In this document: positions 6,824 through 54,023 of the stretch, piece by piece | Numbering within the stretch: position 1 is the first letter of the stretch | Layout of the letters: each line of letters starts with the position of its first letter | From: an uncultured Thermoleophilia bacterium | Lineage (GTDB): Bacteria > Actinomycetota > Thermoleophilia > UBA2241 | NCBI GenBank assembly: GCA_963702475.1 | Contig: CAVPCT010000005.1 | Span: 288,001-352,000, forward strand | Length of the DNA stretch: 64,000 nucleotides | Reading direction: 5' to 3' | Translations under genes and position numbers: made by a program | Notes under the pieces: model-generated | The model's input: only the letters and a program-made list of their open reading frames with translations | Database searches by the model: none | What the model was told of the DNA's origin: nothing

Positions 6824-7243
6824 ATGACCGCTGAACACCTCATCCTCATCGTCGACGACGACTACGACTTCCTCGAGATGAACCGCTTCATCCTCGAGAA
6901 CGCCGGTTACAGGGTCGTCACCGCCACCAACCCCGCTGAGGCCGCGGCGCGCATCGACGAGGAGGCGCCCGACCTCGTCATCACCGACCTGATGATGACG
7001 AGCATCGACGCCGGCTTCGCGTTCTCGCTCGCGCTCAAGAGCGACCCGCGCACGGCCGCGGTGCCCGTGATCATCTCCACGTCCGTGAGCAGCGCCCTGG
7101 GCCTCGACTTCCACCCGCGGTCCGAGGCGGACCTGGCCAAGATGAACGTGGACGCCTACTTCGACAAGCCTATCGACGCGCAGGCGCTGCTCGCCAAGGT
7201 CGGCGAGCTGCTGTCGCGACGCGCCGAAGGACCCACCCGATGA
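6824..7243 (+). CDS. Single-domain response regulator (receiver)
   Basis: ILIVDDD, PDLVITDLMM, conserved T and KP; no output domain. Confidence 0.9.
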   Translation: MTAEHLILIVDDDYDFLEMNRFILENAGYRVVTATNPAEAAARIDEEAPDLVITDLMMTSIDAGFAFSLALKSDPRTAAVPVIISTSVSSALGLDFHPRSEADLAKMNVDAYFDKPIDAQALLAKVGELLSRRAEGPTR

Positions 7244-26543: not shown

Positions 26544-26669
26544 GACACCTCCCTCTTTGTCGACCGAGTGGAGTGGCACCCCACTCCCCGGCACTGCGCC
26601 GACATGCCATCCGAACTGTTCGACGTTCCCAACGGCCGACCTTGCGCCACACACGCAGACATGGTGACG

Positions 26670-27193
26670 ATCGGCCGCCCAAGCCCTTGTGTGTCCGGCC
26701 CCGGACCAGCGCGGTAGAGTCCTCTCCGTGCCCCAACGGCTACTCGTGCGACAGGCACGCGTGCACAAGGAAGGGGTGCCACGGCCACGTCCGAGAGACC
26801 CGTGGTCGTGGGGATCGACGTCGCCGAATAGGCACGCCCGCCAAGAGCGATGGCCTCGATGCCGGCGTGCGCACGGAGAGCGCCGCCGCGCTCGGGGCGC
26901 TCGTCGGGGTGGCGCCTTTCGCGCGAGAGTCGGGCGTCTGGCGGGCCCGCCGGCGCATCGCCGGCGGGCCGGCGCCGCTGCGCCGCACGCTCCACGTGGT
27001 GACGCTCACGGTGCCGCGCCTCAACCCGGTCATCCACGCCTTCTATGAGCGCCTGCTCGCGGCCGGCAAGCTCGAAAAGGTCGCCCTCGTGGCCTGCATG
27101 CGCAAGCCACTCACGGTTTTTCGACGCGATGGTCCGTGACGGCCGCCGTCTCACTCCGCAGCTTGTCCACGCCTGCCGTCCAGGACGGTTGCT
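26670..27193 (+). mobile_element. Internally deleted IS110-family element (transposase pseudogene)
   Basis: RBS, then VVVGIDVAE* (N-terminal RuvC-like motif) at about 26802-26831; C-terminal LVGVAPFARESG...RIAGG...FYERLLAAGK..KVALVACMRK; IS110-like right end CAGGACGGTTGCT; left boundary approximate. Confidence 0.75.
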
Positions 27194-33006: not shown

Positions 33007-34431
33007 CTAGGCCATCGGGATGCTCGTGCTCGCGCAGGCCTGAGCAGCCTCGGACCCCGCGGCCTCGCCCGCGGCGGCGGCGCCGGCCGACGACACGCTG
33101 CCGCAGACGGTGCCGGCCAGCAAGAGCGGCACGCCGCCGGGCAGACGGTGACGGGCGACGCCGTCTGCCGCCGGCGGCGCAGCCGCGACGACAGGCTCGA
33201 GCACGAACGCGCCGGCGGCGAGCGCCTGTCTCACCAGCTCGTCGGCCGCGAGGCCGCCCGCGGCCACGCACACGAGGTCGCACGTGAGGCGCACGCACCG
33301 GCGTCCGGCGCCGCCCGGGCCCTCGAGCGCGAGCGTCGCGGCCCGCACCGAGACACGCCCGTGGGCGCGTAAGTCGCGCACACCGCCGAAGACCGGCGCG
33401 GGCGGACCGGTGGCGGCGCGTGCGGACCCGAGCGGCTCGCGTCCGCCGGCGCGCAAGTCGGCGACGGCGACCACCTCCACGCCTCCCGCGGCGAGCTCGG
33501 CGGCCAGCACGTAGCCGTCGTCGCGGTCGGTGACGACGAGGGCTCGACGACGCGCGAGCGCGCCGCAGCGCAGCAGGCGGCGCGCGGCTCCGCAAGCGAG
33601 GACGCCGGGCAGGTCGCCGCCGCGGAACGGCGGGATCCGCTCGTGCACTCCCGTGGCCAGGACCACGGCGGCGGGCTCCACAAGCAGCAGGTCGTCGCCG
33701 GCGACCACGGCGAGGACGCCCTCCTCGTACCAGCCGGCGACCTCCGCGCCGGTCAGCACGCGGAGACCCCCTCCCCGCGCCAGCTCGCCGACGCGCGTCC
33801 GCAGGCGCCGCGGCTCGGGGCCGTCGACGGCGCGCCCGCCGAGGAGCGGGTGACGCTCCACCAGCAGCGTCGGCGCGCCTGCGCCGGCGGCCGCCACGGC
33901 GGCGCTCATGCCGGCGACCCCTCCCCCGGTCACGACCACGCCGCCGCGCACGCGCTCGAGCCGCGCCCGCGCCAGCAGCCGCGCAGCCGCCTCGCGCTCC
34001 GGCAGGGCGGTCTGCCCCGCGGCGCGGGCCAGGACGCGTTCCGCCACGTGCCAGGCGCGCGGCGAACGCCGGAACCACGAGTAGTAGAAGCCGGCGTGCA
34101 GCAGGGGCGCGGCAAGCTCCGCCGCGCGCCCCAGGTCTGCGCCGGCCGACGGCCACCCTCCTTCCCGCTCGACCGCCATGCCCTCGCGCACCGGCGTGAT
34201 GCACGTGCGCACGCCGGGGAGCCCGTCCACGCGCATGGCGCAGCACGAGCACGTCCCGTTACCGCAGCGTACGCCTCGGGGGCGGTGGAACTTCGACGAC
34301 CGCCCGAACACCCGCAGCCCGTGTGCGGTCAGGGCCGCGGCCACGGTCACACCCTCGGGCGCCGTGAGCGTCCGACCTTCGAACCTGAACCGCACCAGCG
34401 GTACGCCGGGGTCGGCGGAGCCGCGCATCAC
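33007..34431 (-). CDS. Sarcosine oxidase alpha / proline dehydrogenase alpha-like subunit (2Fe-2S + FAD)
   Basis: FGRSSKFHRPRGVRCGNGTCSCC, GGGVAG, LATGVHERIPPF. Confidence 0.8.
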   Translation of the reverse strand: MMRGSADPGVPLVRFRFEGRTLTAPEGVTVAAALTAHGLRVFGRSSKFHRPRGVRCGNGTCSCCAMRVDGLPGVRTCITPVREGMAVEREGGWPSAGADLGRAAELAAPLLHAGFYYSWFRRSPRAWHVAERVLARAAGQTALPEREAAARLLARARLERVRGGVVVTGGGVAGMSAAVAAAGAGAPTLLVERHPLLGGRAVDGPEPRRLRTRVGELARGGGLRVLTGAEVAGWYEEGVLAVVAGDDLLLVEPAAVVLATGVHERIPPFRGGDLPGVLACGAARRLLRCGALARRRALVVTDRDDGYVLAAELAAGGVEVVAVADLRAGGREPLGSARAATGPPAPVFGGVRDLRAHGRVSVRAATLALEGPGGAGRRCVRLTCDLVCVAAGGLAADELVRQALAAGAFVLEPVVAAAPPAADGVARHRLPGGVPLLLAGTVCGSVSSAGAAAAGEAAGSEAAQACASTSIPMA

Positions 34432-35651
34432 CCCTCCTCCCCCGCGGACACGACCAGAGACGGCTCATGGATGAGCCTGCCCTCGCGCAGACGGTCGATG
34501 GTGAACGGCGCCAGCAGCTCCGGAGTCCTGCCGGTGGCGATCAGCTCCCCGAGCAGCGCGCCGGCGGCCGGGGCGCCCATGAACCCGTACACCCAGCCGC
34601 AGTCGAGGTAGAAGCCGTCGAGCTCGGGCACGGGCCCGAGCACCGGCGCCACGTCCTCGGCCTGGGTGCACACGCCGGCCCAGTGCCGCATGAGGCGGAC
34701 CCCGGCGAGGGACGGGAGCAGGCGCGTGAACTTGGCGGCCATGTCGCGCGCGCCCGCCAGCGATGCGCGCAGGTCCTGCTCCTCCCGGACGGGCACCGGT
34801 TCGGTGCCTCCGACGATCTCGCCGCGCGTAGTCTGATGGCAGTACGCGAGGTGGCGCGGCGAGCTGAGAGCGGGGCGGAGGAACGGCCGCAGGGGCTCGG
34901 TGACCATGGCCTCCAGGACGTAGGTGCGCAGCGGCACCTCGACGCCGGCCAGGCGGGCGACGCCGGCAGCGTGGCCGCCGGCGGCGTCCACCACCAGCGG
35001 CGTCGCGACGTGGCCGCGGCTGGTGCAGACCCCGGTCACGCGGCCGGCGACGGTCTCCACCGCGGTCACCTCGGTGCACGGGTGGACCTCGGCGCCGAGT
35101 CCGGCCCCGGCCCGGATGTAGCCCCACACCACGGCGTCGTGATGGGCGAACCCGGCGTCCGGCTGGTACATGGCGCCGCGGACCTGGCCGGGGGCCAGCG
35201 CCGGCGCCAGCTCGAGGGTCTCGGCGGCGCCGAGCACGCGCGTGCGCAGGCCGAGCGCACGCTGCATGCGCACGTGACGCTCGAAGGCGGCGACCTCGTC
35301 GTCGCTCGCCGCGAGCACCGCGTAGCCGGCCGCCGTGAACAGCACGTTGAAGTCCAGCTCGGCGGACAGCGTGCGCCAGCGCCGCAGGCTCTCGTCGAAC
35401 AGGCCCATCCACTCCTTCGAGGCGAAGGCCGAGCGGATGAGCTCGCCGTTGCGGCCGCTGGCGCCGGCGCCGGGGTACGCCGCGTCGAGGACGGCGACGC
35501 GGCCGACGCCCCGGCGCGCCAGTTCGTGCGCGACGGCCAGCCCCTGCACACCCGCCCCGATGACGACCACGTCGTAGGCGCGCCGGAGCGCGCCGGTGCA
35601 GGCGCCGGGGACGACCCTACCGCCGGGCATGACCCGGTCACGGACGCTCAT
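34428..35651 (-). CDS. FAD-dependent amine/imine oxidase (sarcosine oxidase beta / DAO family)
   Basis: YDVVVIGAGVQG, GASGRNG, AHHD, EAMVTEP, WAG, GW.YGFMGAPA. Confidence 0.85.
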   Translation of the reverse strand: MSVRDRVMPGGRVVPGACTGALRRAYDVVVIGAGVQGLAVAHELARRGVGRVAVLDAAYPGAGASGRNGELIRSAFASKEWMGLFDESLRRWRTLSAELDFNVLFTAAGYAVLAASDDEVAAFERHVRMQRALGLRTRVLGAAETLELAPALAPGQVRGAMYQPDAGFAHHDAVVWGYIRAGAGLGAEVHPCTEVTAVETVAGRVTGVCTSRGHVATPLVVDAAGGHAAGVARLAGVEVPLRTYVLEAMVTEPLRPFLRPALSSPRHLAYCHQTTRGEIVGGTEPVPVREEQDLRASLAGARDMAAKFTRLLPSLAGVRLMRHWAGVCTQAEDVAPVLGPVPELDGFYLDCGWVYGFMGAPAAGALLGELIATGRTPELLAPFTIDRLREGRLIHEPSLVVSAGEEG

Positions 35652-35934
35652 CGCCGCCTTCGCCCGCGCCGGCCGCCAGCGTACCCAGCCGCACCGGCCA
35701 CAGCGGCGGACGCACCGGCGGAGCCGGCACGTCCGCCGGATCCCGCCCCGTCAGCTCGGCGAGGAGCAGGCGCACGGCCTCGCCGCAGCTCTTGCCCTGG
35801 CACGGCCCGGTGAACGCGCCGGTGAACCGTTTGAGCGTCTCGACGTCGGCGTAGCCGGCGGCGACGGCGCGCCGCACATCTCCGGCGGTCACGTCACGGC
35901 AGAGGCAGAGGATGACCCTGTCGTCCATCGTCAC
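35638..35934 (-). CDS. BFD-like [2Fe-2S]-binding protein
   Basis: ILCLCRDVT...LKRFTG..TGPCQGKSC...RPP. Confidence 0.85.
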   Translation of the reverse strand: MTMDDRVILCLCRDVTAGDVRRAVAAGYADVETLKRFTGAFTGPCQGKSCGEAVRLLLAELTGRDPADVPAPPVRPPLWPVRLGTLAAGAGEGGDERP

Positions 35935-35979
35935 CTCAGGGGTCGACGGTGCGTCCCGGTCGCCCGCCTCCGCGACACG

Positions 35980-37164
35980 TCAGTACGCGCAGGTCAGGGT
36001 CGCGTCCACGTGGATGTCGCGGCGGTTGCACTCGGCGAAGTACGCCTCGGGCGGGATACAGGCCTCGCCGCCGAACGCGCCGCGCTCTGTGATCACGCCA
36101 CGCCCGAGCAGCAGCACCGTCACGGCCGAGAGGAACCCCACCGTGAACGCCCCGCACGACATGTCCCACGGCGGGTACGGGTGCTGGATGCTCTCGAGGC
36201 GGTAGTCCTGCAGCTGCCCGTCCCTGGTACCGCGCACGTCCACGCGCAGCACCTTGTGGTCGTCGGGTCTCGGCGGCGGGCCTGCGGCGGCCGCCTCCTT
36301 CAGCGACTCCTCCACCAGCTTCATGAGCAGGGCGCGCGGGACGACCTCCACCCCGTCCACCCCCAGCGGCTCCTTGCCGGCCAGGCCGAGCTCCACCACG
36401 AAACGCAGCTTGTCCTCGAACGCCTTGGGCAGCGACAGCTGGAAGCTCACCTCGCGGATGCCCTTGTCGCGGAACGACACGGGGATCGTCTGCGGCTCGG
36501 AGTGGATCGTGTAGAAGCAGGTCTGCGTGCCGACCGGCTCCGGGAAGTCGATGACCTCGGCGCCGGAGAACGGCGTCATCTCGCACCAGTCGCCGTCCTT
36601 GAAGATCCACGGGTCCATCATGAACTCGTTGAGAAGGGTGTCGAGAGAATACGGGGGGACGAGAGGCGCCCAGGCCGGCGCGAAGTTGACGATGCCGTCG
36701 CGGATCCTGACCCATTCGACGGTGTCCAGGCGGAGCGACGCATACCGCGCCATCACGTTGACGATTCCGGGCGCCGAGCCCGAGCCGCAGACCGCCGTGA
36801 GCCCGGCGGCCTCGAACCGGTCGTGCATCTCGAGCTGCTTCTTCGCCCAGTGGAAGAGGCCGCCCATATCGGTGTAGTGGCACCCGGCGGCGAGGCACGC
36901 CTCCATGATGCCCTCGTTGAAGTAGGGCAGCGTGGCGTTGAGACAGACGTCGATGCCGTCGAGCGCCGTCGCCGTGGCGGCGCGGTCGGTGACGTCCACG
37001 ACCGCCTGGGAGACCTTGGCGGCATCGAGAGCCTCCACGCGACCGCGCAGCGCGGTCGCGTCGGCGTCCGCCAGAAGGAGCGCCTCGACCTCGTCGTTCT
37101 CCACGAGCTCACGCACGGCGCCCTGCGCCATCTTGCCGGCGCCGCCCATCACGCAGACCTTCAC
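35980..37164 (-). CDS. Saccharopine dehydrogenase family oxidoreductase
   Basis: GGAGKMA Rossmann motif, YFNEGIMEACL, HYTDMGG, GSAPG, HSEP. Confidence 0.8.
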   Translation of the reverse strand: MKVCVMGGAGKMAQGAVRELVENDEVEALLLADADATALRGRVEALDAAKVSQAVVDVTDRAATATALDGIDVCLNATLPYFNEGIMEACLAAGCHYTDMGGLFHWAKKQLEMHDRFEAAGLTAVCGSGSAPGIVNVMARYASLRLDTVEWVRIRDGIVNFAPAWAPLVPPYSLDTLLNEFMMDPWIFKDGDWCEMTPFSGAEVIDFPEPVGTQTCFYTIHSEPQTIPVSFRDKGIREVSFQLSLPKAFEDKLRFVVELGLAGKEPLGVDGVEVVPRALLMKLVEESLKEAAAAGPPPRPDDHKVLRVDVRGTRDGQLQDYRLESIQHPYPPWDMSCGAFTVGFLSAVTVLLLGRGVITERGAFGGEACIPPEAYFAECNRRDIHVDATLTCAY

Positions 37165-37369
37165 GGAGCCCTCCTCTCCCGGGAAGCCGCCGCCGAGCCC
37201 CCCTCCGGGGGCAGGGCGGCGGCTGCTGCTGTCGCCTCGACGCTAGCACCCGGACTCGGCGACGGGCAAGGTCGGCGGCGAGAGGACGGGAAGCGCTCGG
37301 CCGCGCCGCCGAGCGCGCCGCCGGCCGCGTCTCAGCGCGCGACGACGAGCCGCCGGCCGCCGCGCCCGC

Positions 37370-41988: not shown

Positions 41989-43559
41989 TCAGCGTTTCAC
42001 CCGGAACGTCTTCGTGTTGCTCCTGCCCGCGGACGTGGTCACGGTGACCTTCACCTTGCCGATCTTGGCCTTCGCCGGCACGCGGCAGGTGATGCGCTTG
42101 TCGGTCCACGAGAGGTACGCGGTGCACTTCTTGCCGCCGAACTTGACGTAGCTGCTTCCTCTGGGGCTCCCGAAGAGGAGGCCGCTCACCACCACCACCG
42201 CCTTGCGCTTGCCGGCCGAGGGCGAGAGTCTGAGGACCATCGGCCGCGGGGCGTCGCCGCCGGTGATGGTCGCGAGGATCAGGCCGCCGCTCCCCACCAC
42301 GAGGCCGTGCTTGGCGTCGGCGAAGTCGATGGCGCCGAAGTCGGCGGTCGAGCCCGTCGTCTGGGGCTTCCAGGTCGTGCCGCCGTTCCCGGTCACGAGG
42401 ATGGTGCCGCCGCGGCCGGTCGCCCACCCGAGCTTCGTCCCGAACGAGGTCACGGACGTGAGGTCGGTCGTCGTCCCGGACGACTGTCCCTTCCACGTGG
42501 TGCCGCCGTTGCCGGTCACGAGGATGGTGCCGCGGTCGCCCACGGCCCAGCCCACCGAGTCGTGGGTCATCGTGACCGACGTCAGGTCGGCGAGCGTCCC
42601 GGACGACTGCGTCGTCCACGTGGAGCCACCGTCGTCCGTGGCGATCACGGTGCCGTCTTCGCCCGCGGCCCAGGCGTGGGTCGAGTCCGTGCACGTGACG
42701 GCGTCGAGGTGCGCCGACGTGCCCGACTCCTGCGGCTTCCACGTGTCGCCTCCGTCGCGGGTCACGACGACCGTGCCGTCGTCGCCGACGGCCCAGGCGG
42801 TCGCGCCGCTCGCGGTCACGGAGGTGAGGTCGCCGGCGGTGCCGGCAGGCGCCTTGTCCCACGTCGAGCCGCCGTTGGAGGTGACCACGACGGCGCCGCT
42901 GTCTCCCACGGCCACGCCGTGCACGGCGTCGATGAAGACGACGGAGCGCAGGTCGGCCGTGGTGCCGGACGTCTGGGGACGCCAGGTGGCGCCGGCGTCG
43001 GCGGTGACGAGCACGGTGCCGCCGTCGCCCACGGCCCAGCTCTTCGTCGTGCTCACGACGGCCGTCGCGCGGAGCGTCTGCGTCGTGCCCGACTGCTGTC
43101 GCGGTCCAGCCGCCTGCGGCCGTGCCGGTGACGGTGAAGCTCGCGGCGCTGGTGGTGCTGCCGAAGGACGTGGTCACCGAGATGCGGGCCCGACGTGGCG
43201 CCGGCGGGCACGGTGCACTCGAGCTGCGTGAACGGCGAGACGTGCACGCTGGTCGCGAGCGTGCCGTTGAAGCGCACCTGAGTGTCGACGGCGAACCAGT
43301 AACCCTTCACGGTGACGAGGGTGCCCACGGGCCCACTGGTCGGCGAGAAGCCCTCGATGACCGGCGGCTCCAGCGGGACGGAGGAGAGCGTGGACGGGGC
43401 GCCGGCCGCGGGACCAGGCGGGGCGGCGGGACCGGCGCGCAGCGCCGCGGCGCCGCCCGCCGCGACCAGTGACACCACGACGAGCGCGATGACAAGCGCC
43501 GGGACGCCCGCTCGACGCCTCCGGGCCGTCGCGTGACAGGACGATGCAGTCCGGGTCAT
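41989..43559 (-). CDS. Secreted IPT/TIG + YCF48-like beta-propeller + IPT/TIG protein, with two +1 frameshifts (near 43187 and 43099)
   Basis: Signal peptide; FSPTSGPVGTLVTVKG (TIG); repeated WAVGD.GT...T.DGG.TW..Q.SGT (BNR/YCF48); removing one base at each site gives GRISVTT and WTAQQSGTTQTL. Confidence 0.75.
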
Positions 43560-43686: not shown

Positions 43687-45156
43687 TCAGCCGACGCCGT
43701 GCCGGCGGTCGGCCTCCGCGACGATCGCACGCATCTGCGCGGCGACGTCGGGGTCGACGGGCTCGCACCGGTGTGACTCGAGCAGCTCCAGCGCCCGCTC
43801 GCGGGCGCGCTGCGCCAGGTCGGTCGAGCCCTGCGCCTGCCAGTCGTCGCGCACGCGACGGTCGAGCAGGTCGGAGCGGCTGAGGTCGCGCATGTGGCGC
43901 AGCGTGGAGTCGAGGGAGAGGAAGTCGCCGGACGAGCCGACCGCGGCGATGTCGTCCGCGGCGAGGCTCTCTTCGTCGACGCGGACGCCACCCACGGCCA
44001 TCTTGATCATGTGGGCGATCTCGTCGTCCATGACGAGCTGGCCGAAGTCGAAGGCCACGCCCGACTCGATCATCCCCGCACCGTAGATCTGGTTGGCCCC
44101 TGCCAACGCAGCCAGCAAGCCGGTGAGGGTCTTCTCGTGCCCCGCCTGGGCGTCGCCGAGCTTCGCGTCCGTCTACAACCCCGCCACGAAGCTGGGGAGG
44201 CCGTAGCGCCGCGCCAGCTGCGCGACGGCGGCGCTGATCACGGCGAGCTCGGGCGAGCCGACCGCGGCGGTGGCGAGTCTGAGGTCCATCGCGGTGGTGG
44301 ACGACCCGTAGACCATCGGGCACCCTCGCTCGGTGAGCTGCGCCAGCACGATGCTGCCGAGCACCTCGGCGTTGTGCGTCACCAGCGTGCCCGCCAGCGT
44401 GACCGGCGACGAGCCGCCGGCCATGGCCATGCTGACGACGGTGTTGGACATGCCGGAACGCGCCGCCTCGATGATGACCTCGGTGGCGTCGCGCGGCAGC
44501 TGCAGCGGGCTGACGGGGCACACGCCGAAGCCGACGAGCGGGCGGCGACGCAGCTCGTCCTCGCCGCCCGCGAGCACCCGGGCCATCGCCACGATGGCGC
44601 GCACGTCCTCCGCCGTCGTCGCCTCGCTGCCCACCGGCTTGGTGGTCTCGTGGACGGCCTCCTGCCACTTGTGCAGGCTGGCGGTGGCCGCCGGGACGTC
44701 CTCCGCTCCGACCGCCGACTCGTAGGCGTCCATACTGTCCAGGGCGTCGACCAGACGCGCCACCTCGCGCACGTCCCCGATGCCCGGTTTGCGGTACTCC
44801 CCCGTGCGCGGGTCGACGAGCATGATGCCCTCGTCGAAGTTGGAGAAGTGGACGCTGCCGGCCTCGAGCACCACGTCGTCAGCTGGGTCGCGGCCGCACA
44901 GGTGGACGGCTGGCGGACACGCGGCCACCGCGTCCTCAACGATGTGCGGAGGGATGCGCACCGTGCGCGACCCGCGGTCCACGCGACAGCCTCCGTCGGC
45001 GAAGAGGTCGAGCGGCTCGTCGTCCTCCACGAACAGGCCGGTGCGCTCCAGGACCTCGAGCGTGGCGAGGTGGATGTGGTCGATGTCGGCTTCGCTGAGG
45101 ACGTCGAGCCTCAGACCCGGGCTCCCCGGCCGGCCGGACTGCAGCGGGCGTTTCAC
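43687..45156 (-). CDS. mttB: Trimethylamine:corrinoid methyltransferase with in-frame amber (pyrrolysine, codon 328); 489 aa with read-through
   Basis: MttB fold throughout; LPSFVAGL-TAG-TDAKLGDAQAGHEKTLT...AGANQIYGAGM matches the Pyl-containing MttB motif; TAG at 44173-44175; same frame continues to TGA 43687. Confidence 0.93.
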
Positions 45157-45205: not shown

Positions 45206-46711
45206 TCACGCGCGCGCCGCCTCGTCGGCGGCGGCCACGAGGCGACGCAGCTCGCGCTGCGCGTCGTCGCCGAGCGGCTCCGGCCGGTAGTGGTCCAAGA
45301 TGTCCCCGGCGCGCTCGCGCGCAACCTCGACGGCGTCGCGGAAGTGGCGCCCGTCGGCGGCGACCTCCTGCGTGATGGCGCGCACCACCGAGGTACGCAT
45401 GTGCCGCCGCGTGTGCACGTGGCCGAGGAAGTTGCCGCCCGGGCCGACCGCGGCGATGGCCTCGAGAGCGAGCGCCTCCTCGTCGGCCGCGACGTCGAGG
45501 AACGCCGCGCGGGCGCGGTGGTAGAGGTCGTCGTCCAGGATCAGGTCCTCGGGCGCGAACACCGTGAAGGTGCCGTGCAGACCGATACCGGTGTAGGTCT
45601 CGCAGCCGTCCAGCGGGAGCTGCAGGAGCTGCGAGGCCTGTTCCACGCCGTGCTGCCAGGTGCCGGGCTCGGTGGCGTCGGTGCCGCCGAAGGCGCCCAG
45701 CGCCGGCAGACCGAAGGCGTGCAGCAGCTCGGTCGCCAGGAAGCGGCAGCGGTCCTCGAGCGGCGCGGACAGCGTGAGCGCGCTCCGCGGGTCGGCGTAG
45801 CTGCTCATGATCGACCCCCACACCGGCGCGCCCGGCGCCGCCAGCTGGTGGAGCACGGCGGCGGCCACGATCTCGGCGGCGCCCACCACCAGGGCGCCGG
45901 CCGGCGTGGCCGGGGCCGTGGTGCCCAGGGTCGGCATGGTCACGTAGCACACGGGGATGCCGGCCTCCGCGAACACCAGTCCGGCGCCGGTGCCGTCGTC
46001 GTCGAGGACGAGCGGCGACACCGTCCCGATGAGGTCGCTGAGCGCTGAGGGAGCGCCGACGCCGCGTGCGTCAGCGACCACAGCGGCCATCTCCACGGCG
46101 CAGCGCGCCAGCGTCTCTCCCTGCACCATGCCCATCAGGTGTTTGGTCGTGTTGTTCCAGCCCGCCTCGAGCTCGTGCACCTGCGCGGCGGGGCCGCAGT
46201 CGCCGGCGCCCACAGTGGGCCACCAGAACGCGATGGACCCGAGGTAGTCCTGCATGCGCGTGACGCCGGCGAGGTCGGCCTTGGTGGACGGGCGCGGCTC
46301 GCCGGTGTGCCGGTCGACGACGTGGGTGCCGCTGCCGTCGGTGGTGCCGTAGGTCTCGCCGGAGGCGAGATCCAGGTCGGTGAGGCCGTCGCGCGAGCCC
46401 AGCACGAAGGTGCGCGGGGCGAGCGCCAGCGACTCCTGGACGAGCCGGCGCGGCAGCCGCACGAGGCCGGAGGCCTCGTCCACGTCCGCGCCGGCCTTCG
46501 CGAACAGCTTGAGGCCCTTGCGCGAGCGGCACTTGACGCCGGTGCCGGCGAGGACGGCGAACGTCGCGTCCAGGTACGGCACCAGCCTCTCCGCGTCGTG
46601 CACCTGCAGGCGGAACTCGGACCGCAGGGGCGCCAGCGGCTGCCTGCGCAGCCGCTGGGCGCCCGGCGCCGTCACGCCCGACGGTCCGGCGTCGGTCGCT
46701 CCGGCGCTCAC
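45206..46711 (-). CDS. MttB-superfamily methyltransferase (non-pyrrolysine)
   Basis: AGADVDE..GLVRLP...LALAPRTFVL, VSPL, LGTTAPATPAGALV; AFGGTDA at the Pyl-equivalent site. Confidence 0.88.
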   Translation of the reverse strand: MSAGATDAGPSGVTAPGAQRLRRQPLAPLRSEFRLQVHDAERLVPYLDATFAVLAGTGVKCRSRKGLKLFAKAGADVDEASGLVRLPRRLVQESLALAPRTFVLGSRDGLTDLDLASGETYGTTDGSGTHVVDRHTGEPRPSTKADLAGVTRMQDYLGSIAFWWPTVGAGDCGPAAQVHELEAGWNNTTKHLMGMVQGETLARCAVEMAAVVADARGVGAPSALSDLIGTVSPLVLDDDGTGAGLVFAEAGIPVCYVTMPTLGTTAPATPAGALVVGAAEIVAAAVLHQLAAPGAPVWGSIMSSYADPRSALTLSAPLEDRCRFLATELLHAFGLPALGAFGGTDATEPGTWQHGVEQASQLLQLPLDGCETYTGIGLHGTFTVFAPEDLILDDDLYHRARAAFLDVAADEEALALEAIAAVGPGGNFLGHVHTRRHMRTSVVRAITQEVAADGRHFRDAVEVARERAGDILDHYRPEPLGDDAQRELRRLVAAADEAARA

Positions 46712-48120
46712 CGCGGCACCGCCCCTCTGCGCGTCCTGACCAGGGAGCTGCGCTCACGGAACCGGTCCACGCAGTTGATGGGCAGGTCGAGAAGGTCGGC
46801 GATGTTCATCTTGGCCTCCATCGCCGTCGCGGCACCCGGGAACGGGGCCTCGGAGTCGATGATCCTGCCGAGGCCCAGCTCGCCGCGGACCTCCTGCATC
46901 GCCACGCAGTCGGAGAGGTCGGCGATGCTCACGCCGAGCCTCTCGGCCACCACACGCTTCGCCTCCGGGAGCCGCAGTCCCCGCGTCATCTGCATGCGCG
47001 CCACCAGGTCTCCGGCGGCGCGTAGCCCGTTCATCCCGCAGGCTGTCGCGTGAGCGCTGGGCATCCCGAAGATGTCGCCTGTACCCACCTACAACCCGTC
47101 CACGCGCAGCAGATCGACGAAGGCGCGCCCCACACGCGACACGGCGTCCACGGGCGGGCAGACGCTCATGGGCACGCCGCCGACCCCCATCCCGGCGTTG
47201 ACGTGCACGGGGATGCTCGCTGCGGCCACGCAGGGCTTGAGGATCGTGGCCGCGCGGGCCACGTTCCAGGCCACGGAGTGCGTGGTGTTGACGTTGACGC
47301 AGGGGCCGAAGATGGTGGCGCCGGCCTGCTCGACCACGCGCAGCTGGTCGTGAGGCCACAGGCCGGCCAGGCGCACGCCGTCGAACTCGAGCCGCCCGTG
47401 CATCCCCAGCACGAACTCGGAGGCCATGCCGACCTCGATGCTCATGGTGGGGAAGTCGCGGCGCAGCGCGCGCACCACCTCGAGCACGGCCAGGAACTCG
47501 GCGTCGCCGGCCGCGCCGCTGGTGTCGAAGTCCAGACCGTCGGCGCCGGCCTCCCAGAGCCTCTCGGCGACGTGGCGCATGTCGGCGGTCGCGTAGGCGA
47601 CCGCCGCCTCCTGCGCCTCACGCGCCTCGTCGGCACGGCCCTGCGGCAACAGCTCGGACCAGTTCGGCACGGGGCCGTCCGGCATCGAGTACCGCCCGAG
47701 GTCGGCCTGCGACCCGTAGTGCAGCGGCATCGTGAGCCGGTGCTGGGCGTCGTGCATGGCCTGGGCCTCGCCGGCGACCACTTTGGCGGCGGCGTTGTAG
47801 CAGTAGTCCTGGTGGAACAGCTCGCCGGAGTCGGCGCCGAGCATCTGCTCGTAGATCACAAGGCCGTCGATGCGCTCGTTCTGCTGCGTGCCGGTGCCGT
47901 CGTAGCTCAGGACGACCTCCTCGCCGATGTCCACGGCCGAGAAGCGCGCGGGAGAGGCGAAGATGTCGAGCAGGTGGTCGAGCTCCGCGGCGTCGAGCGG
48001 CTCGACCTTGGCCCGTTTCGCGCCGAGCGCCGAGCCCTCTTCGAGGTCGGCGCGCAGCTCGGAGCGCGTGAGGTGGACGAGCGCGCCGTCTCCCATCCTC
48101 GTCGGGATCTTCACTTCCAT
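46708..48120 (-). CDS. mtbB: Dimethylamine:corrinoid methyltransferase with in-frame amber (pyrrolysine, codon 344); 470 aa with read-through
   Basis: TRMGDG, FDTSGAAGDAEF, GMASEFVLGMHG, GMGVGGVPM, VDGL-TAG-VGTGDIFGM...RAAGDLVARMQ...EAK; TAG at 47089-47091; downstream TGA overlaps next GTG start. Confidence 0.93.
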
Positions 48121-48192
48121 GAGCGTGCTCTCCCCTCCGGCTGAGCTGCGGGACCGGTCAGCGCACACACAACCCCAGTCCGGCCGCCCGCT

Positions 48193-48257
48193 CAAGAGCG
48201 GACGCAAGGTTTGCCCAAGAATCGGCGGTGGCGGCGCGCGATCCAGGCCCGGATACT
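48193..48257 (+). promoter_or_regulatory. Candidate operator AGGTTTGCCCAAGAATCGGC (48207-48226) with GATACT -10-like box
   Basis: Exact 20-nt copy at 50982-51001; CAAG repeats at 48193, 48205 and 48216; GATACT 25 nt downstream. Confidence 0.7.
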
Positions 48258-48306
48258 CCGTCTCAACGACTGTGCCGGCCGCGGCCGGCGGACGAAAGGG
48301 GCGCCC

Positions 48307-49725
48307 GTGGCGCGTGCGCGCATCCAGTACCTGTCGCCTCGGGAGAGCGACTTCATCCACGAGCAGACGCTGGAGCTCCTGGCGCGAGTGGGCGTCGCCT
48401 ACAACTCACCCAGGGCGCTCGACGTGCTGGAGGCAGCCGGCGTGGAGGTCGACCGGGAGAAGCTCACCGCGAAGCTCGGCTGGGAGGTGATCGAAGAGGC
48501 GCTCCGCACCGTGCCCGGACGAGTGCTGCTGGCCGGGCGGCTCCCCGAGCACGACCGCGTGCTCGGCGACGGCCGGCTGGTCACCACGAGTGACGGCATG
48601 ACCACGTACGTGCTGGACGAGCCCGGCGGCGCCCGCCGCGAGGGCACCGCCGCCGACCTGGCCACCGTCACCCGGCTCTGCGACGCGCTCGACGAGATCG
48701 ACGTGGTGTGGCCCTCGCCGCAGGCCGGCGACGTGGACGCCTGGATGATGCCGCTGGTGATGCAGGCGACGGTGGTGCGCAACACCGGCAAGCACGTGCA
48801 GGACGAGGTACGCACCCCGGAGATGGTCGAGCCGATCCTGGCGGTGTACGAGGCGGCCGCGGGCGCGACGCTGCGCGAGCGCCCGGTGTTCTCGGTGACG
48901 AACTGCACGATCGCGCCGCTGCAACACGACCGCGAGATGACGGAGGCCGGCCTGGAGCTTGCGGCACGCGGCGTGCCCATCTTCGTGCTGCCCATGCCCC
49001 AGGCCGGTACGACAGGGCCCATGACCCTGCTCGGCACCTGCATCGTGCACATGGCCGAGCTGCTCTCGGCGGTCGTGCTCTACCAGCTGGCCGTGCCCGG
49101 CTGCCCGCTCATCGCCGGGGTCGGGGCCGCCGTGGCCGACATGCGCAGCGGCGGCTACATCTCGGCGGCGCCCGAGATCGGCCTCATCAACCTGATCTGC
49201 CTCACGATGAGCAAGCGCTACGGGCTGCTCACGCAAGCCACGGGGATCTCGCCCGACGCCAAGGTGAGCGACTTCCAGGCGGGCTCGGAGGGCGGCATGA
49301 CGGGGCTCGTGGCCGCCCTCGCCGGCGCCGACTCGCTCATCGCCGCCGGCAGTCTGGACGGCGTACAGTGCTCGAGCCTCGCCAAGCTGGTGCTGGACGA
49401 CGACCAGCTCGGCGCCATCCGCCGCTACCTGCGCGAGGACCCCATCGACAAGACGGCGGCGCTCATGGACGACATCCTCGAGGTCGGCATCGGCGGCCAC
49501 TTCCTCGCGCGCCGCAGCACCCGCCACGCCGCGCGCACGGAGGTCTGGCGGCCGCGCGTGTTCCAGCGCGGGAGCTACGCCGAGCTGGCCGGTCGGTCGG
49601 TGGTGCAGGCGGCCGCCGAGCGCGCCGAGGAGCTGCTGGCGACGCACGACGCGCCGCCGCTCGCGCCCGCGGCCGAGGCGGCGATCGCCGAGGTACTGGC
49701 GGCCTGGGAGGCGCGCCGGCCCTGA
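48307..49725 (+). CDS. MttB-superfamily methyltransferase (non-pyrrolysine)
   Basis: IHEQTLELLARVGV, IAPLQHD, AGTTGPMTLLG, DMRSG...APE, TGISPDAK, GIGGHFL. Confidence 0.9.
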   Translation: MARARIQYLSPRESDFIHEQTLELLARVGVAYNSPRALDVLEAAGVEVDREKLTAKLGWEVIEEALRTVPGRVLLAGRLPEHDRVLGDGRLVTTSDGMTTYVLDEPGGARREGTAADLATVTRLCDALDEIDVVWPSPQAGDVDAWMMPLVMQATVVRNTGKHVQDEVRTPEMVEPILAVYEAAAGATLRERPVFSVTNCTIAPLQHDREMTEAGLELAARGVPIFVLPMPQAGTTGPMTLLGTCIVHMAELLSAVVLYQLAVPGCPLIAGVGAAVADMRSGGYISAAPEIGLINLICLTMSKRYGLLTQATGISPDAKVSDFQAGSEGGMTGLVAALAGADSLIAAGSLDGVQCSSLAKLVLDDDQLGAIRRYLREDPIDKTAALMDDILEVGIGGHFLARRSTRHAARTEVWRPRVFQRGSYAELAGRSVVQAAAERAEELLATHDAPPLAPAAEAAIAEVLAAWEARRP

Positions 49726-49815
49726 CCCCGTCAGTGGGCACTGGGCCGTCGGCCGCGGGCGCGGCGCCCGCCCCGGCAGGCGGCCGTTCCTTCGACACGC
49801 CGGCGGGCGCCGCCG

Positions 49816-50898
49816 TCAGCCCAGGCGCAGTAGCGCCTGGGCAGCCGCGGCGGCGACCAGACGGAGCACGCGCTCCTCCTGGCCGCCCGCCGCACGTGGC
49901 AGGGCGACGCGCAGTACCAGTTTCCCCACGGGCGTGACCTCCTCGGCCTCCACCAGCCCGGCCGCGTCCGCGGTGTCGCGCCACCTCCCGCGCGCGACCG
50001 CTCCTTCGTCGCGCGCGCGGCCGGTCAGGTCGTCCCACTCCGCCTCCGCCGACGCGCCACCGAGGGCGCGGCACGCGAGGGCGGCGGCGGCGGCCAGCAC
50101 CTCGTCCACCGTGCGGCCGGCCACGAGCTCCGGGAGGCCGGCCACGACCGCGTCCACCGCGCTCGCCAGCAGCCGGCCGTCGGCGTCGCTGCGCGCGAGG
50201 CGGGCGAAGGTGCCCGCGTTCTGCAGCGCCACCGCGGCGAGGCCCGCGAGGGCGCGCGCGAGGCGCAGCTCCTGGTGCGTGAAACGACGCTCCCTGAGGT
50301 GGTCGTACACCTCGAGCGTGCCGACCGTGCGCCCCGCGAACACGAGCGGCACCACGAGGAGCGTCTTGTCGCCCCACTGGCGCATGATGGCGGTCTCCGC
50401 CGGGTCCGCCGCCGGGTCGCTCACCGTGATGACCCCGAGCTCCTGCACCTCGACCAGGCGGTGCGTGAAGGGGAAGCCCTTCAGCGAGTACGGGTTCCAG
50501 TCGGCTATGCGCTGCCCGTTGCGGTCGTAGTCCGCCAGCACCGACACGACGTCCGTCTCGGGGTCGTACTCCGACACGGCGCAGAAGTGACAGTCCAGCG
50601 TGGCCGTGACGCGCCGTGCTATCTCGCCGAGCAGCTCGGGCAGGTCGAGCCGGCTGGTGAGCGCCACGGAGGCGTCCACGAGGGTGTCGACCTCGCGCTC
50701 GCGGGCGAGGCGCGCGGCGGCCTGGTCGCTCGCCGCGACGAGCGTGGCGAGCTCGTCCACGTCCTCGCGCCGCATGCGCCGGTGACCGCCGGCCGTGCGG
50801 ATGCAGGGGAGGAAGCCCGAGTCGGTCCAGCGACGGATGGTGTCGGGCGAGACGCCCAGCCGGCGGGCCGCGAGCTGCACGCTCAGGTACACGGACAT
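49816..50898 (-). CDS. Excisionase/BldC-like (MerR-type HTH_17) DNA-binding protein with a GAF domain
   Basis: YLSVQLAARRLGVSPDTIRRWTDSGFLPCIRTAGGHRR; GAF region LTSRLDLPELL...LLVVPLVFAGRTVGTL...F...ELRLARALA. Confidence 0.88.
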   Translation of the reverse strand: MSVYLSVQLAARRLGVSPDTIRRWTDSGFLPCIRTAGGHRRMRREDVDELATLVAASDQAAARLAREREVDTLVDASVALTSRLDLPELLGEIARRVTATLDCHFCAVSEYDPETDVVSVLADYDRNGQRIADWNPYSLKGFPFTHRLVEVQELGVITVSDPAADPAETAIMRQWGDKTLLVVPLVFAGRTVGTLEVYDHLRERRFTHQELRLARALAGLAAVALQNAGTFARLARSDADGRLLASAVDAVVAGLPELVAGRTVDEVLAAAAALACRALGGASAEAEWDDLTGRARDEGAVARGRWRDTADAAGLVEAEEVTPVGKLVLRVALPRAAGGQEERVLRLVAAAAAQALLRLG

Positions 50899-50904
50899 GG
50901 GCGC

Positions 50905-50933
50905 AAGCTAGTCGCAAAGCCGGAGGGGGTCAA
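50905..50933 (-). promoter_or_regulatory. Consensus promoter giving a probable leaderless mRNA for the HTH-GAF regulator
   Basis: Minus strand TTGACC-N17-TAGCTT, then 6 nt to ATG 50898; no RBS. Confidence 0.7.
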
Positions 50934-50969
50934 CAGCGCGACGGCGCGGGCCCCGGCGCCCCGGCCCGA

Positions 50970-51032
50970 CAAGAGCCTGCGAGGTTTGCCCAAGAATCGG
51001 CTCTTACACGCCCCGTGCCCCGTGCGCATACT
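50970..51032 (+). promoter_or_regulatory. Second copy of the operator AGGTTTGCCCAAGAATCGGC (50982-51001) with CATACT -10-like box
   Basis: Identical 20-mer, preceded by CAAGAGC as at 48193; CATACT again 25 nt downstream. Confidence 0.7.
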
Positions 51033-51066
51033 GCGGCGACGCAGCCGGGGATCACACTGAGGGAGG

Positions 51067-52587
51067 GTGCACGTGGAACTGACGACCGCGAGCCAGACCG
51101 CCGCCCGGAGCCAGGGCCTCAAGCGCACCAGCGTCCGCCTTCTCACGGTGTTCTTCATGATCTACATCCTCGTCTCGGGCGGGTCGTTCGGCATAGAGGA
51201 CATGGTGTCATGGTCCGGCCCGGGCCTCACGATCCTGCTGCTCATGGTGCTGCCGATCGTCTGGAGCTTGCCCATGGCGCTGGTCGCGAGCGAGTTGGGG
51301 TCGGCGCTGCCCGGCGAGGGCGGCTTCTACATCTGGGCGCGGCGCGGGCTCGGCGACTTCTGGGGATTCCAGACCGCCTGGTGGTGGACCCTCTCCATCT
51401 TCGTGGACTCGTCGGTCTACGTCGTCCTGGCCGTCGGCTACCTGCAGAACTGGCTGGGCTTCGGACAGCTCTGGTTCTACGTCACCTGCTGGGCGATCAT
51501 CGCCGTGTTCACACTCGTCAACGTCTTCGGGGTCAAGCTGGTGGCACTCAGTTCGACCGTCTTCTCGGTGCTGATCATCGCGCCGTTCCTCGTGCTGATC
51601 GTGGTCGGCCTGGCGAAGTGGCAGTTCAACCCCCTGACGCCGGTGACGCCGCCGGGCGTACCGTTCTTCGGCACCAACGGCGCCCTCGGCCTCGGGCTGG
51701 CCATCGGCGTGTGGATGTACTCCGGCTACGAGTCCATGTCCACGCTTTCGGGAGAGATCCGCGATCCCCAGCGCGTGATCCCGCGCGCGCTCCTGCTCGC
51801 GGTGCCGTTCATCATCGCCATGTACGTGCTGCCCACGGTGGCCGCCCTGGCCGGCTACGGCCAGTGGGACATGTGGGCGACAGACGCCGGCGACGGCTAC
51901 GTCTCGTTCGTGGAGATCGGCAGGGCCCTCGGCGGCTCCGCGCTCGGCGTCGCGCTGCTGGCGTCGGCCCTGCTCGGCAACCTGGCGCTGTACCTGGACT
52001 ACCTGGCCTCGGGCGCGCGCCCACTCTTCGCACTCTCTACCGATCGCCTCTTCCCCGCCGCGGCGTCTCGCGTCAGCAGGCGGTTCGGTACGCCGGTCGT
52101 GGCCATCCTGCTGATGGCCGGGCTGAACGCCGTTCTCATCGTCGGACCGTTCCGGAACCTGGTGGTGATCGACGTGATCCTGTTCACGGCGTCGTACGTG
52201 CTGATCTTCATCGCCGCGGTCGCTCTGCGCGTGAAGGAGCCCGGGCTAAGAAGGCCGTTCCGCGTGCCGCTGGGGACAAAGGGCATGGCGCTCATGGTGG
52301 CACCGCCCATCGCCATCGTGCTCTTCACGATCTACGTGAACGCCATCGACCGCAGCACGGAGATCCTCGGCGTCACCGGCTTCCGGGTGCTGGGCATCGA
52401 CGTGGGCTGGTACGGCATCGGCGGCTTCCTCGCGCTGGCCTCCGGACCGGTGTGCTACCTGGCCTTCCGCCGCGCGTTCGGCGGACCGGCCACGCCGGCG
52501 GCGCAAGCCGGCGACGACGAGCTGGCGGCGCTCGCGGCGGCCGCCGAAGACGGGGACGACGAGGCCGGCCCAGGAGCGCTCGCATGA
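51067..52587 (+). CDS. APC-family amino acid/amine permease
   Basis: About 12 hydrophobic helices; SGGSFGIED, SELGSALPGEGGFYIW, YSGYE, GEIRDP, RPFRVP; start may be 51073. Confidence 0.9.
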   Translation: MHVELTTASQTAARSQGLKRTSVRLLTVFFMIYILVSGGSFGIEDMVSWSGPGLTILLLMVLPIVWSLPMALVASELGSALPGEGGFYIWARRGLGDFWGFQTAWWWTLSIFVDSSVYVVLAVGYLQNWLGFGQLWFYVTCWAIIAVFTLVNVFGVKLVALSSTVFSVLIIAPFLVLIVVGLAKWQFNPLTPVTPPGVPFFGTNGALGLGLAIGVWMYSGYESMSTLSGEIRDPQRVIPRALLLAVPFIIAMYVLPTVAALAGYGQWDMWATDAGDGYVSFVEIGRALGGSALGVALLASALLGNLALYLDYLASGARPLFALSTDRLFPAAASRVSRRFGTPVVAILLMAGLNAVLIVGPFRNLVVIDVILFTASYVLIFIAAVALRVKEPGLRRPFRVPLGTKGMALMVAPPIAIVLFTIYVNAIDRSTEILGVTGFRVLGIDVGWYGIGGFLALASGPVCYLAFRRAFGGPATPAAQAGDDELAALAAAAEDGDDEAGPGALA

Positions 52588-54023
52588 GGGCGCGGCTCGA
52601 GATCCTGACCGCCGGGGAGCGCGCCCAGGTCCACGAGCGCACCCTGGGGGTGCTCGAGCGGACGGGGATGCGCTGCGACTCGATCGAGGGTCGCCGGATC
52701 CTCGCCGACGCCGGCGCCCGGGTGGACGAACACACCGGCGTCGTGCGCTTTCCGGCGGTGCTCGTCGAGCAGGCGCTGGCGCAGGCGCCGAAGGCGTTCA
52801 CGCTCGGAGGCCGCCGTCCCGGCTGGAGGTTCGCCCTCTGTGAGGGCGAACAGACCCTGCTCGCCGACGGCGGCGCCACCGCCGTGTTCGACAGCGCGAC
52901 CGGCGAGCGACGGCCACCGACCCGCGGCGACTGGCTGGCGGCCACGCGCATCCTCGACGCGCTCGACGAGGTCGGCCTCTACTGGTGCCCGACGGACTAC
53001 CCGGCGGACTACGAGCGCGCCGGCGGCTTCGTGCGCTACTACGCGGACGCGTTCGCCACCTTCGGCAAGCACGTACAGGACTCGTTCGGCACGCCCGAGC
53101 TGGCGCCGTGGCTCGGCGAGGTCCTCGAGGCGGTGTTCGGCGGCCGCGCGCGCGTGCGCGACCTGCGGCCGCTCTCGTTCCTCATCACGCCGGCCTCTCC
53201 GCTCACCATCGAGCGCAACTACACGGACTCGTGGCTCGCGCTGCGGGACTACCGGTTGCCGGTCGCCATCATGCCGATGCCGCTGCAGGGGGCGACGGCG
53301 CCGGGCAGCCGGCTGGGCACCCTGCTGGCCGCCAACTGCGAGACCCTGGGCACGCTCTGTCTGGTGCAGGCCGCGGCGCCGGGCACGCCCGTCATCTACG
53401 CGCCGGTCGTGGCCACGATGGACCCGCGCACCGGGCTGTACGCCGCCGGCGCCGTGGAGCACGCCGTGCTCTGCGCCGCCGGCACGGAGATGGCCCGGTT
53501 CTACGGCCTGCCGGCCGAATCCTCGGGCTTCTGCACGCAGACCCACGAGCCTGACCTGCAGACCGCCTGGGAGAAGGCCAACGGCGCCCTGCTCGTCACG
53601 CTCTCCGACCCCGACATCCTGGTCGGGCCGGGGCTGCTGGCGGGCGCGACGGTGCTGTGCCTCGAGCAGCTCGTGCTCGACGTGGCGGAGTGGCGCCTGG
53701 CACGCCAGGCGCAGACGGGCATCCCGGTGCGCGACGACCTCTGGCTCGACGACGTGCTCGACCGCGTCGGGGCCGGCGGCTCGTTCCTCTCCGCGCGCTC
53801 CACGCGTGCCAACGCGCGCGGGGGCGAGGAGTGGCGCCTCGGCGACCTCGGCTTCCACGGCAGCCACGACGCGTGGCGCGCGGCCGGCGCGCCGACGACG
53901 CTGCAGTACGCGCGAGAACGTGTCACGGAGATCCTCGCCGCGCACCAGCCGGTGCCCTTCGACGACGACGTCACCGCTGCGCTCGCGGAGCTCCAACGGC
54001 GGGCCGACGCAGCCGACGCGTGA
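52584..54023 (+). CDS. MttB-superfamily methyltransferase (non-pyrrolysine)
   Basis: VHERTLGVLERTG, GVVRFP, ASPL, GATAP, DPRTG, EMARFYGLP, QTAWEK; ATGA overlap with the permease. Confidence 0.9.
   Translation: MRARLEILTAGERAQVHERTLGVLERTGMRCDSIEGRRILADAGARVDEHTGVVRFPAVLVEQALAQAPKAFTLGGRRPGWRFALCEGEQTLLADGGATAVFDSATGERRPPTRGDWLAATRILDALDEVGLYWCPTDYPADYERAGGFVRYYADAFATFGKHVQDSFGTPELAPWLGEVLEAVFGGRARVRDLRPLSFLITPASPLTIERNYTDSWLALRDYRLPVAIMPMPLQGATAPGSRLGTLLAANCETLGTLCLVQAAAPGTPVIYAPVVATMDPRTGLYAAGAVEHAVLCAAGTEMARFYGLPAESSGFCTQTHEPDLQTAWEKANGALLVTLSDPDILVGPGLLAGATVLCLEQLVLDVAEWRLARQAQTGIPVRDDLWLDDVLDRVGAGGSFLSARSTRANARGGEEWRLGDLGFHGSHDAWRAAGAPTTLQYARERVTEILAAHQPVPFDDDVTAALAELQRRADAADA

Follow-up and report, generated by a model that had tools for sequence, protein, structure and literature searches.

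What reads the 20-nucleotide (nt) sequence AGGTTTGCCCAAGAATCGGC, which stands in two spacers between divergent genes within a methyltransferase gene cluster of an uncultured Thermoleophilia bacterium? The stretch of DNA analysed (64,000 nt of contig CAVPCT010000005.1, assembly GCA_963702475.1, positions 288,001 to 352,000; hereafter the window) carries one copy between the dimethylamine methyltransferase gene mtbB and a gene of the MttB (trimethylamine methyltransferase) superfamily, and another between a regulator gene and a permease-MttB operon. A sequence-only reading of this stretch had proposed that the regulator, a BldC-like helix-turn-helix (HTH) protein with a GAF domain, controls a methylamine regulon through the 20-mer. 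Comparison with related loci makes the 20-mer a well-supported predicted operator of the adjacent regulator, because boxes of the same type occur upstream of regulator genes, are nearly confined to those spacers and are kept in L003, a locus described below. The full explanation that we favor, in which the regulator reads the box as a ligand-dependent activator of two units with MttB genes lacking pyrrolysine (non-Pyl), has in our estimate a probability of about one half.

The repeat and its counterparts in a regulator family

The 20-mer (the box) has exactly two perfect matches in the window, both on the plus strand (Table 1), and no third match with up to three mismatches occurs in the 64 kb. 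None of 100 shuffled controls contained any match, and none is expected by chance. The exact repeat described earlier is thereby confirmed. Only four exact repeats in the window exceed the box in length (21-27 nt), all within paralogous or internally repeated coding DNA (hydrogenase/NADH-oxidoreductase-type genes and a BNR gene); elsewhere in the window the box is the longest. Its G+C content is 55%, compared with 71% for the window. The box lacks palindromic symmetry and sits roughly midway along each divergent spacer: the minus-strand start codons are 86 and 83 nt away, the plus-strand start codons 80 and 71 nt. The genes downstream of the two copies, an MttB paralogue and a permease, are unrelated, and the four MttB-family proteins of the window share only 31-34% pairwise identity, so a recent segmental duplication is not the cause of the repeat.

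Sequence identity between the two copies ends sharply at the box edges, and the offset to (G/C)ATACT is kept exactly, at 25 nt as first described; ATACT has only six occurrences on the plus strand of the whole window. Two other details of the earlier description need qualification. CAAGAGC does precede both copies, but the gap differs, being 7 nt at the first and 5 nt at the second. The C(A/G)AG direct repeats were confirmed at 10-12 nt (starts 48193, 48205 and 48216, spacings 12 and 11 nt; starts 50970, 50980 and 50991, spacings 10 and 11 nt), but the two 10-nt halves of the 20-mer agree at only 4 of 10 bases, which leaves a weak internal direct repeat when the window alone is considered. The shorter pattern CAAAC[CT]T has three sites in the window, namely the two boxes and one inside a gene (15372).

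A search with the regulator returned 466 relatives at E ≤1e-3, nearly all from Thermoleophilia/Actinomycetota metagenome assemblies; HTH residues 5-41 hardly differ in this material, and proteins P0002-P0004 reach 75-80% identity. Related loci were fetched with two peptide patterns taken from the regulator family, giving 68 loci (about 60 true relatives; 1,151,634 nt in total) in which 92 family genes were located, many as tandem pairs; with the window gene the set comprises 93. The leaderless promoter proposed for the regulator proved to be a family trait, since the architecture TTGAC-N17-19-TANNNT-N5-8-start is present in 90 of the 93 genes. GAACTT was found in 48 of the 93 upstream regions against 1.24 expected, and AA(C/G)(C/T)T boxes are strongly enriched upstream of the family -35, their positions peaking sharply 13 and 36 nt before it, i.e. 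with the boxes 23 nt apart. Among the 90 anchored promoters, AA(C/G)TT boxes occupy both positions in 63 and at least one in 77, and 13 have none.

An expectation-maximization (EM) motif search yielded GAA[CG]TT[GC].C (about 244 weighted sites, low information). This core was too weak for scanning alone, so paired and strict patterns were used. The double-box pattern had 120 matches in 2.3 Mb (both strands), about eight of them away from regulator-adjacent spacers, and its single match in the window (58611, within a coding region) was taken as chance. Strict 8-mer boxes numbered 155; 87 of them lie in the 330 nt that precede a regulator start, and the others are mostly inside genes. HTH residues 5-42 show almost no variation among 89 family members (the long-branch rows L042_8722, L060_10001 and L053_10270 were left out of the conservation count), consistent with one common core box.

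The window 20-mer is a variant of the family box (CGATTCTTGGGCAAACCT). A group with a divergent saccharopine-dehydrogenase-like gene and a permease carries GCCGATTCCTTGCGCAAACTT, which is the window 20-mer with one indel, and CGATGGTTCGGCAAACTT, of the same extended distal-box form, belongs to a group with a nearby MttB-family gene and a major facilitator superfamily (MFS) gene. The presence of extended distal boxes in several family groups shows that the 20-mer is not private to the source genome. With these family boxes and with L003, the comparison bears out the 20-mer as a candidate binding site of the regulator.

L003 is the only locus with the layout of the window, that is, a regulator, a divergent permease and a non-Pyl MttB gene. 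Identity to the window proteins is 77% for MttB, 79% for the permease and 70% for the regulator in its best segment (57% over the whole protein). Checked for conservation of the box at syntenic loci, the material gave two kept copies at this one locus: the L003 permease-regulator spacer holds the two best 20-mer matches (3 and 4 mismatches) of all 68 loci. Only four matches with up to five mismatches exist there in total, and the other two (five mismatches each) lie beside a family gene (L060) and in an unrelated Chloroflexi-type locus. Alignment of both window spacers to that of L003 left a single strongly conserved block, CGATTCTT.G.CAAACCT. In L003 the distance from the permease-proximal box (box A) to the following ATACT is 27 nt, compared with 26 nt in the window, and GAAGAC stands where the window has CAAGAGC. 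In a quick tree of the family, the regulators of L003, the window and L001 form a three-row clade (Shimodaira-Hasegawa-like approximate likelihood ratio test, SH-aLRT, 97) nested in a seven-row clade (SH-aLRT 99). A local autoregulated one-component layout, with the regulator beside its targets and a candidate site in the shared spacer, is found in the window, in L003 and in the family.

The family loci have further regularities. The regulators are mostly tandem same-strand paralogue pairs (most of L005-L059), each gene with its own leaderless promoter and boxes, and the pairs are often followed by a DinG-like exonuclease-helicase gene. A third upstream element, TT(T/A)nC(A/T)G(C/G), for example TTTGCTGG or TTTCCAGCG, is present in 40 of the 90 promoters, located 57-60 or 71-73 nt before the regulator -35 (L005-L059), also before the second gene of tandem pairs. 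L047-L055 and L060 have a second same-sense box pair (e.g. GAACTTG-N-CGAAACTTGCTCG) about 180-250 nt upstream of the regulator and near the start of the divergent saccharopine-dehydrogenase-like gene, giving four boxes in a spacer of about 230 nt. Near the divergent gene, the regulator upstream regions of L002, L004, L016, L023, L027, L030, L035, L040, L043, L053 and L056 contain CATG(C/G)TATC (GATA(C/G)CATG on the other strand), with the form CATCGTATC (other strand GATACGATG) in L009 and L017. This motif resembles a TA(C/G)(C/G)AT -10 and has GATAC in common with the GATACT of the window.

The regulator and its proposed action

Profile and structure searches agree with the description of the regulator as a BldC-like HTH fused to a GAF domain and add a second GAF-like domain (Table 1). 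The HTH scored 45.8 bits on Pfam HTH_17 (PF12728; cutoff 27), 41 bits on MerR_1 and 47.3 bits on TIGR01764 (cutoff 28.8); its score on NCBIfam HTH_BldC (NF033787), 45.2 bits, is under the cutoff of 77. A PDB sequence search placed, for the HTH, a CarH-like cobalamin protein first (8jbs, E 6e-8), BldC second (6ama/6amk, E 5e-7) and RacA and CarH next. The GAF domain (PF13185/PF01590) scored 53.1 bits on GAF_2 (cutoff 28.6) and 49.1 bits on GAF (cutoff 22.4).

An AlphaFold model built from a 34-row alignment (mean predicted local distance difference test, pLDDT, 80.8; predicted template modeling score, pTM, 0.55) consists of a winged HTH (wHTH), a poorly defined linker, the GAF domain, a roughly 50-residue helix and a second α/β domain. 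In a Foldseek search the pair of sensor domains resembled phytochrome GAF-PHY modules (E about 1e-12, template modeling score 0.45-0.5, 9-15% identity), a likeness of architecture only, in which bilin binding is not implied. The homodimer prediction scored 0.57, compared with 0.01 for the best of three controls; among proteins of known structure, 20 of 30 one-chain pairs and 1 of 23 single chains reach this mark, counts that hold only roughly for the custom alignment used here. Contact agreement between runs was at least 73% and partner pLDDT at least 77, and the predicted interface is formed by helices 70-82, 212-259 and 340-358. The regulator is thus predicted to be probably a parallel dimer joined through its long helices, and resemblance to parallel GAF/phytochrome dimers of known structure may have contributed to the high score.

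We propose that the 20-bp box is bound by the regulator in the two divergent spacers alike. Two half-sites of about 10 bp would make up each box (ATTCTTGGGC and AAACCTCGCA on the regulator strand), with GCTCTTG close by as a possible third; a regulator dimer would probably bind the two or three half-sites head-to-tail in the manner of BldC. The box would lie at about -58 to -38 from the putative start, with no good -35 before (G/C)ATACT. Because it stands upstream of a -10-like ATACT and no -35 intervenes, activation is the most likely action. The genes directly downstream of the boxes in the ATACT orientation are a non-Pyl MttB paralogue (48307) and the operon of permease and non-Pyl MttB (51073). 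Activated in response to a ligand, these two units would together serve to take up and demethylate a methylated amine or quaternary amine, and the divergent mtbB-mttB(Pyl) operon and the strong leaderless promoter of the regulator itself may also be affected. What the comparison establishes is the sequence facts, the family-wide link of box and regulator and the conservation at one syntenic locus; binding, half-sites, promoters, sign of regulation and ligand are inferred.

The label "methylamine regulon" was too specific. The boxes front non-Pyl MttB and permease genes, L003 keeps only regulator, permease and non-Pyl MttB, and the Pyl genes mtbB and mttB lie on the opposite strand of the first site, where no TANNNT was seen by eye between box and mtbB start codon, so that no mtbB promoter was found there. 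The scope of the regulon is probably narrower, comprising the non-Pyl MttB and permease genes.

Several observations weigh against this proposal as a whole. The AACCT core of the window box is a minority variant, as T occupies that position in 95% of EM-weighted sites. Conservation of synteny depends on one locus, L003; L001, which completes its three-row clade, is without a box in the 268 nt of available upstream sequence, and the next four relatives (L002, L004, L009 and L017), with a divergent MFS gene, have no clear box. By eye, these four show a partial GGCGAA(C/T)CGG and a conserved GATA(C/G)(C/G)AT, with no confident alignment to the box. All seven members of the window clade are without canonical family boxes at their own -35, and the distance from box to regulator -35 is 53 nt in the window and 45 and 99 nt in L003, compared with 13/36 nt in the family. 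Where other family members have MttB-family genes nearby, the regions upstream of those genes yielded no boxes. The fetching of loci by peptide patterns inflates apparent invariance at those motifs. The assignment of ATACT as a -10 is weak, with no -35 and with AGTAT on the minus strand also -10-like. An E. coli-type promoter/terminator scan of 48050-51150 returned 0 sites, missed the conserved leaderless promoter too and is silent either way on ATACT promoters. What the box keeps in the window clade is its distance to the opposite-strand ATACT, which we read as a move away from autoregulation and towards control of the divergent operon.

The nature of the ligand belongs to the same balance. 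GAF residues C106, D125, R130, Y137, D161, P162, D165, E168, R173, E196, D199, R202 and R204 are at least 95% conserved in the 89 family members across all gene contexts, part of this invariance stemming from the way in which the loci were fetched. Conservation across different contexts argues against a sensor specific for trimethylamine or dimethylamine and suggests a ligand shared by the family rather than pathway-specific ones; it may be a common metabolite or nucleotide instead of a pathway substrate. Family neighbors elsewhere (MFS transporters, saccharopine-dehydrogenase-like genes with an APC permease or MFS gene, and MttB-family genes) fit amine metabolism in a broad sense.

The main rival to activation is repression or DNA remodeling. 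Here the regulator would act on the box as a repressor or architectural protein, by bending, by BldC-like polymerizing or by looping of the sites 2.8 kb apart, and would close the divergent promoters, including that of mtbB-mttB(Pyl), until released by its ligand. The position of the box in the middle of both divergent spacers suits such a role, as do the four same-sense boxes in the spacer of about 230 nt of the saccharopine-dehydrogenase-like group and the DNA distortion reported for BldC (PMC5859096), and the -10-like AGTAT on the minus strand would place the box downstream of a minus-strand start. However, the box overlaps no recognizable core promoter, its fixed 25 nt to ATACT together with the absent -35 is the usual picture of activation, and most family boxes lie just upstream of a consensus -35 and not over it. 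We therefore consider repression unlikely, though it deserves to be taken seriously.

A second alternative keeps the box as a binding site and changes its reader, which would be a paralogous regulator encoded elsewhere, a global regulator or RNA polymerase through an UP-like element. Most genomes carry at least two paralogues with a near-identical HTH, often in tandem, which makes cross-talk likely, and the window clade is without canonical autoregulatory boxes. Against this, the box closely tracks family genes across 1.15 Mb, no other regulator gene lies inside the methyltransferase cluster and no second family member is encoded in the window, so that another reader appears rather improbable.

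A repeat without function, left behind by promoter duplication or micro-conversion or derived from a dispersed repeat element, would fit two identical copies as the only ones in the window. Such an origin is very hard to reconcile with identity that stops at the box edges while the ATACT offset stays exact, and with a box kept amid the diverged spacer of L003, where the regulator is 57-70% identical. Nor is the box scattered within the window or the related loci: apart from the two copies in 64 kb, matches in the 68 related loci adjoin regulator genes except one with five mismatches. An action in RNA, as a leader or riboswitch-like element of minus-strand transcripts, would need transcription to start upstream of the box, which would then be mtbB 5' leader, and can practically be dismissed, as Rfam gave nothing in either spacer at E ≤1 (hairpins and secondary structure of the box were not searched) and 90 of the 93 family regulator genes are leaderless.

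Activation by the adjacent regulator remains our preferred account. A broader extension of it is tentative and, taken whole, rather doubtful. It would see a Thermoleophilia-wide family of one-component regulators, with BldC-type HTH and tandem GAF domains, assembling on AA(C/G)TT repeat arrays next to their own leaderless promoters, with the array of the window clade moved to the divergent promoter, there constituting the first known transcriptional switch of bacterial corrinoid methyltransferase genes (non-Pyl MttB, perhaps Pyl mtbB/mttB), which would answer to a GAF-bound methylated amine or related small molecule.

The gene cluster and the rest of the window

The gene calls for Pyl mtbB, mttB paralogues, regulator and permease agree with the profile matches (Table 1). 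The three minus-strand genes mtbB, paralogue 45206-46711 and mttB form an operon-like row. Only mttB passes the TIGR02369 equivalog cutoff, of which the paralogues 45206, 48307 and 52584 fall short; these have no in-frame TAG, carry Gly, Ser and Cys, respectively, at the Pyl column and are MttB-superfamily members only. No pylT, pyl or corrinoid-protein genes were found in the 64-kb window.

Table 1. Features of the methyltransferase cluster and its candidate control sites (positions within the window)
Feature	Position	Strand	Remarks
mttB, trimethylamine methyltransferase	43687-~45150 (exact start not fixed)	-	In-frame TAG (Pyl) 44173-44175; TIGR02369 658 bits (cutoff 525)
Non-Pyl MttB-superfamily paralogue	45206-46711	-	Start overlaps mtbB stop by 4 nt; TIGR02369 253 bits
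mtbB, dimethylamine methyltransferase	46708-48120	-	In-frame TAG (Pyl) 47089-47091; TIGR02368 433 bits (cutoff 369)
CAAGAGC, possible third half-site	48193-48199	+	7 nt before box 1; L003 equivalent GAAGAC
Box copy 1, AGGTTTGCCCAAGAATCGGC (regulator-strand reading GCCGATTCTTGGGCAAACCT)	48207-48226	+	mtbB/MttB-paralogue spacer
GATACT, candidate -10 of MttB-paralogue promoter	48252-48257	+	25 nt after box 1; without -35
Non-Pyl MttB-superfamily paralogue	48307-49725	+	Ser at Pyl position; Pfam MTTB 252 bits; TIGR02369 332 bits
Regulator, 360 aa	49816-50898	-	BldC-type wHTH (1-55), linker helix, GAF (~85-227), long helix, second GAF/PHY-like domain (264-359)
Leaderless promoter of regulator	50905-50933	-	TTGACC (50933-50928)-17 nt-TAGCTT (50910-50905)-6 nt-ATG
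CAAGAGC	50970-50976	+	5 nt before box 2
Box copy 2, identical to copy 1	50982-51001	+	Regulator/permease spacer
CATACT, candidate -10 of permease-MttB operon	51027-51032	+	25 nt after box 2; L003 has AATACT
APC-family permease (AA_permease_2)	51073-52587	+	Pfam
Non-Pyl MttB-superfamily paralogue	52584-54023	+	ATG overlaps permease TGA (ATGA); TIGR02369 304 bits

The only Rfam hit at E ≤1 was to PYLIS_3, the pyrrolysine insertion element of mttB, and stayed below threshold (20.4 bits, gathering threshold 38, E 0.35). It lies at 49249-49348, inside a non-Pyl MttB paralogue and close to the Pyl column, and is probably a remnant of shared coding sequence.

Elsewhere in the window, positions 1520-22018 hold an anaerobe-type hydrogen-metabolism block with two [FeFe]-hydrogenase large subunits and Nuo51-like partners, a hydrogenase-like domain fused to a histidine kinase (6940-9291), further kinases, and HydF-like and radical-SAM maturase genes. 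Two genes have internal repeats. Three head-to-tail copies of a 292-nt unit (25215-26089, 99-100% identical) in a cadherin-like/DUF5018 surface-protein gene (25191-27005, minus strand) represent a very recent domain triplication or an assembly effect, and six copies with a period of about 123 nt (42326-43039, 71-75% identical) lie in a BNR/YCF48-like and TIG-domain gene (41989-43056, minus strand). An operon-like row at 33007-37242 comprises sarcosine-oxidase alpha- and beta-like genes and a saccharopine-dehydrogenase-like gene. Saccharopine-dehydrogenase-like genes are divergent to regulator-family members in L012 and L047; no CAAAC[CT]T box occurs at 33007-37242.

Comparison with known systems

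Actinobacteriota metagenome-assembled genomes (MAGs) from a thawing permafrost mire (peat) are reported to express Pyl-encoding mttB, mtbB and other methyltransferase genes (PMC10805028), which bears on competition with methanogens for methylated amines. The enzymes of such bacteria are known already from that report, and our literature searches found no account of their control: nothing was found on regulation of bacterial Pyl/MttB methyltransferase genes, and full-text searches returned neither the combination of a BldC-type HTH with GAF nor a regulator of this type for these genes. The statement that no such regulator has been described for Pyl methyltransferase genes holds as far as these searches reach. 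Because both the 20-bp site and the protein are defined, the way in which these genes are switched can be tested without culturing the organism, and the regular promoter and box layout of the family offers about 90 natural variants for deciphering its DNA code.

Classical MerR activators (SoxR 2zhg, TipA 2vz4) have a distant kinship to the regulator in the HTH (E 0.05-0.1). MerR proteins bind a palindrome within an over-long -35/-10 spacer of 19-20 bp, whereas the box is non-palindromic and lies upstream of the -35 position, and the spacer of the regulator promoter is 17 nt. CarH proteins bind direct repeats. CarH/LitR-type photoregulators (8jbs, 5c8d, 3whp) have, like the regulator, a related HTH fused to a C-terminal sensor, but this is a B12-binding domain and not GAF, and only the HTH aligns. 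The regulator model, with two GAF-like domains on a long helical spine, resembles GAF-domain one-component regulators and tandem GAF or GAF-PHY sensor modules and differs from them in its BldC-type HTH output.

BldC of Streptomyces (6ama, 6amk) shares with the regulator a MerR-like wHTH, in which 40 residues, among them the IRT.GGHRR motif, are about 50% identical. It is reported to bind AATTxxxx(C) direct repeats head-to-tail (PMC5859096), and the candidate sites here are likewise direct repeats about one helical turn apart, with window half-sites at 10-13 nt; the BldC site at whiI given in that report resembles the family box GGAATTGCTCGAACTT. The core differs, being AATT for BldC and AA(C/G)(T/C)T for the regulator family. 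BldC is a single domain of 68 residues with no sensor, whereas the 360-residue regulator adds two GAF-like domains and, by prediction, a dimer spine. The fusion of a BldC-type HTH to a ligand-sensing module would carry the direct-repeat binding of BldC over from a developmental regulator to signal-responsive local regulators.

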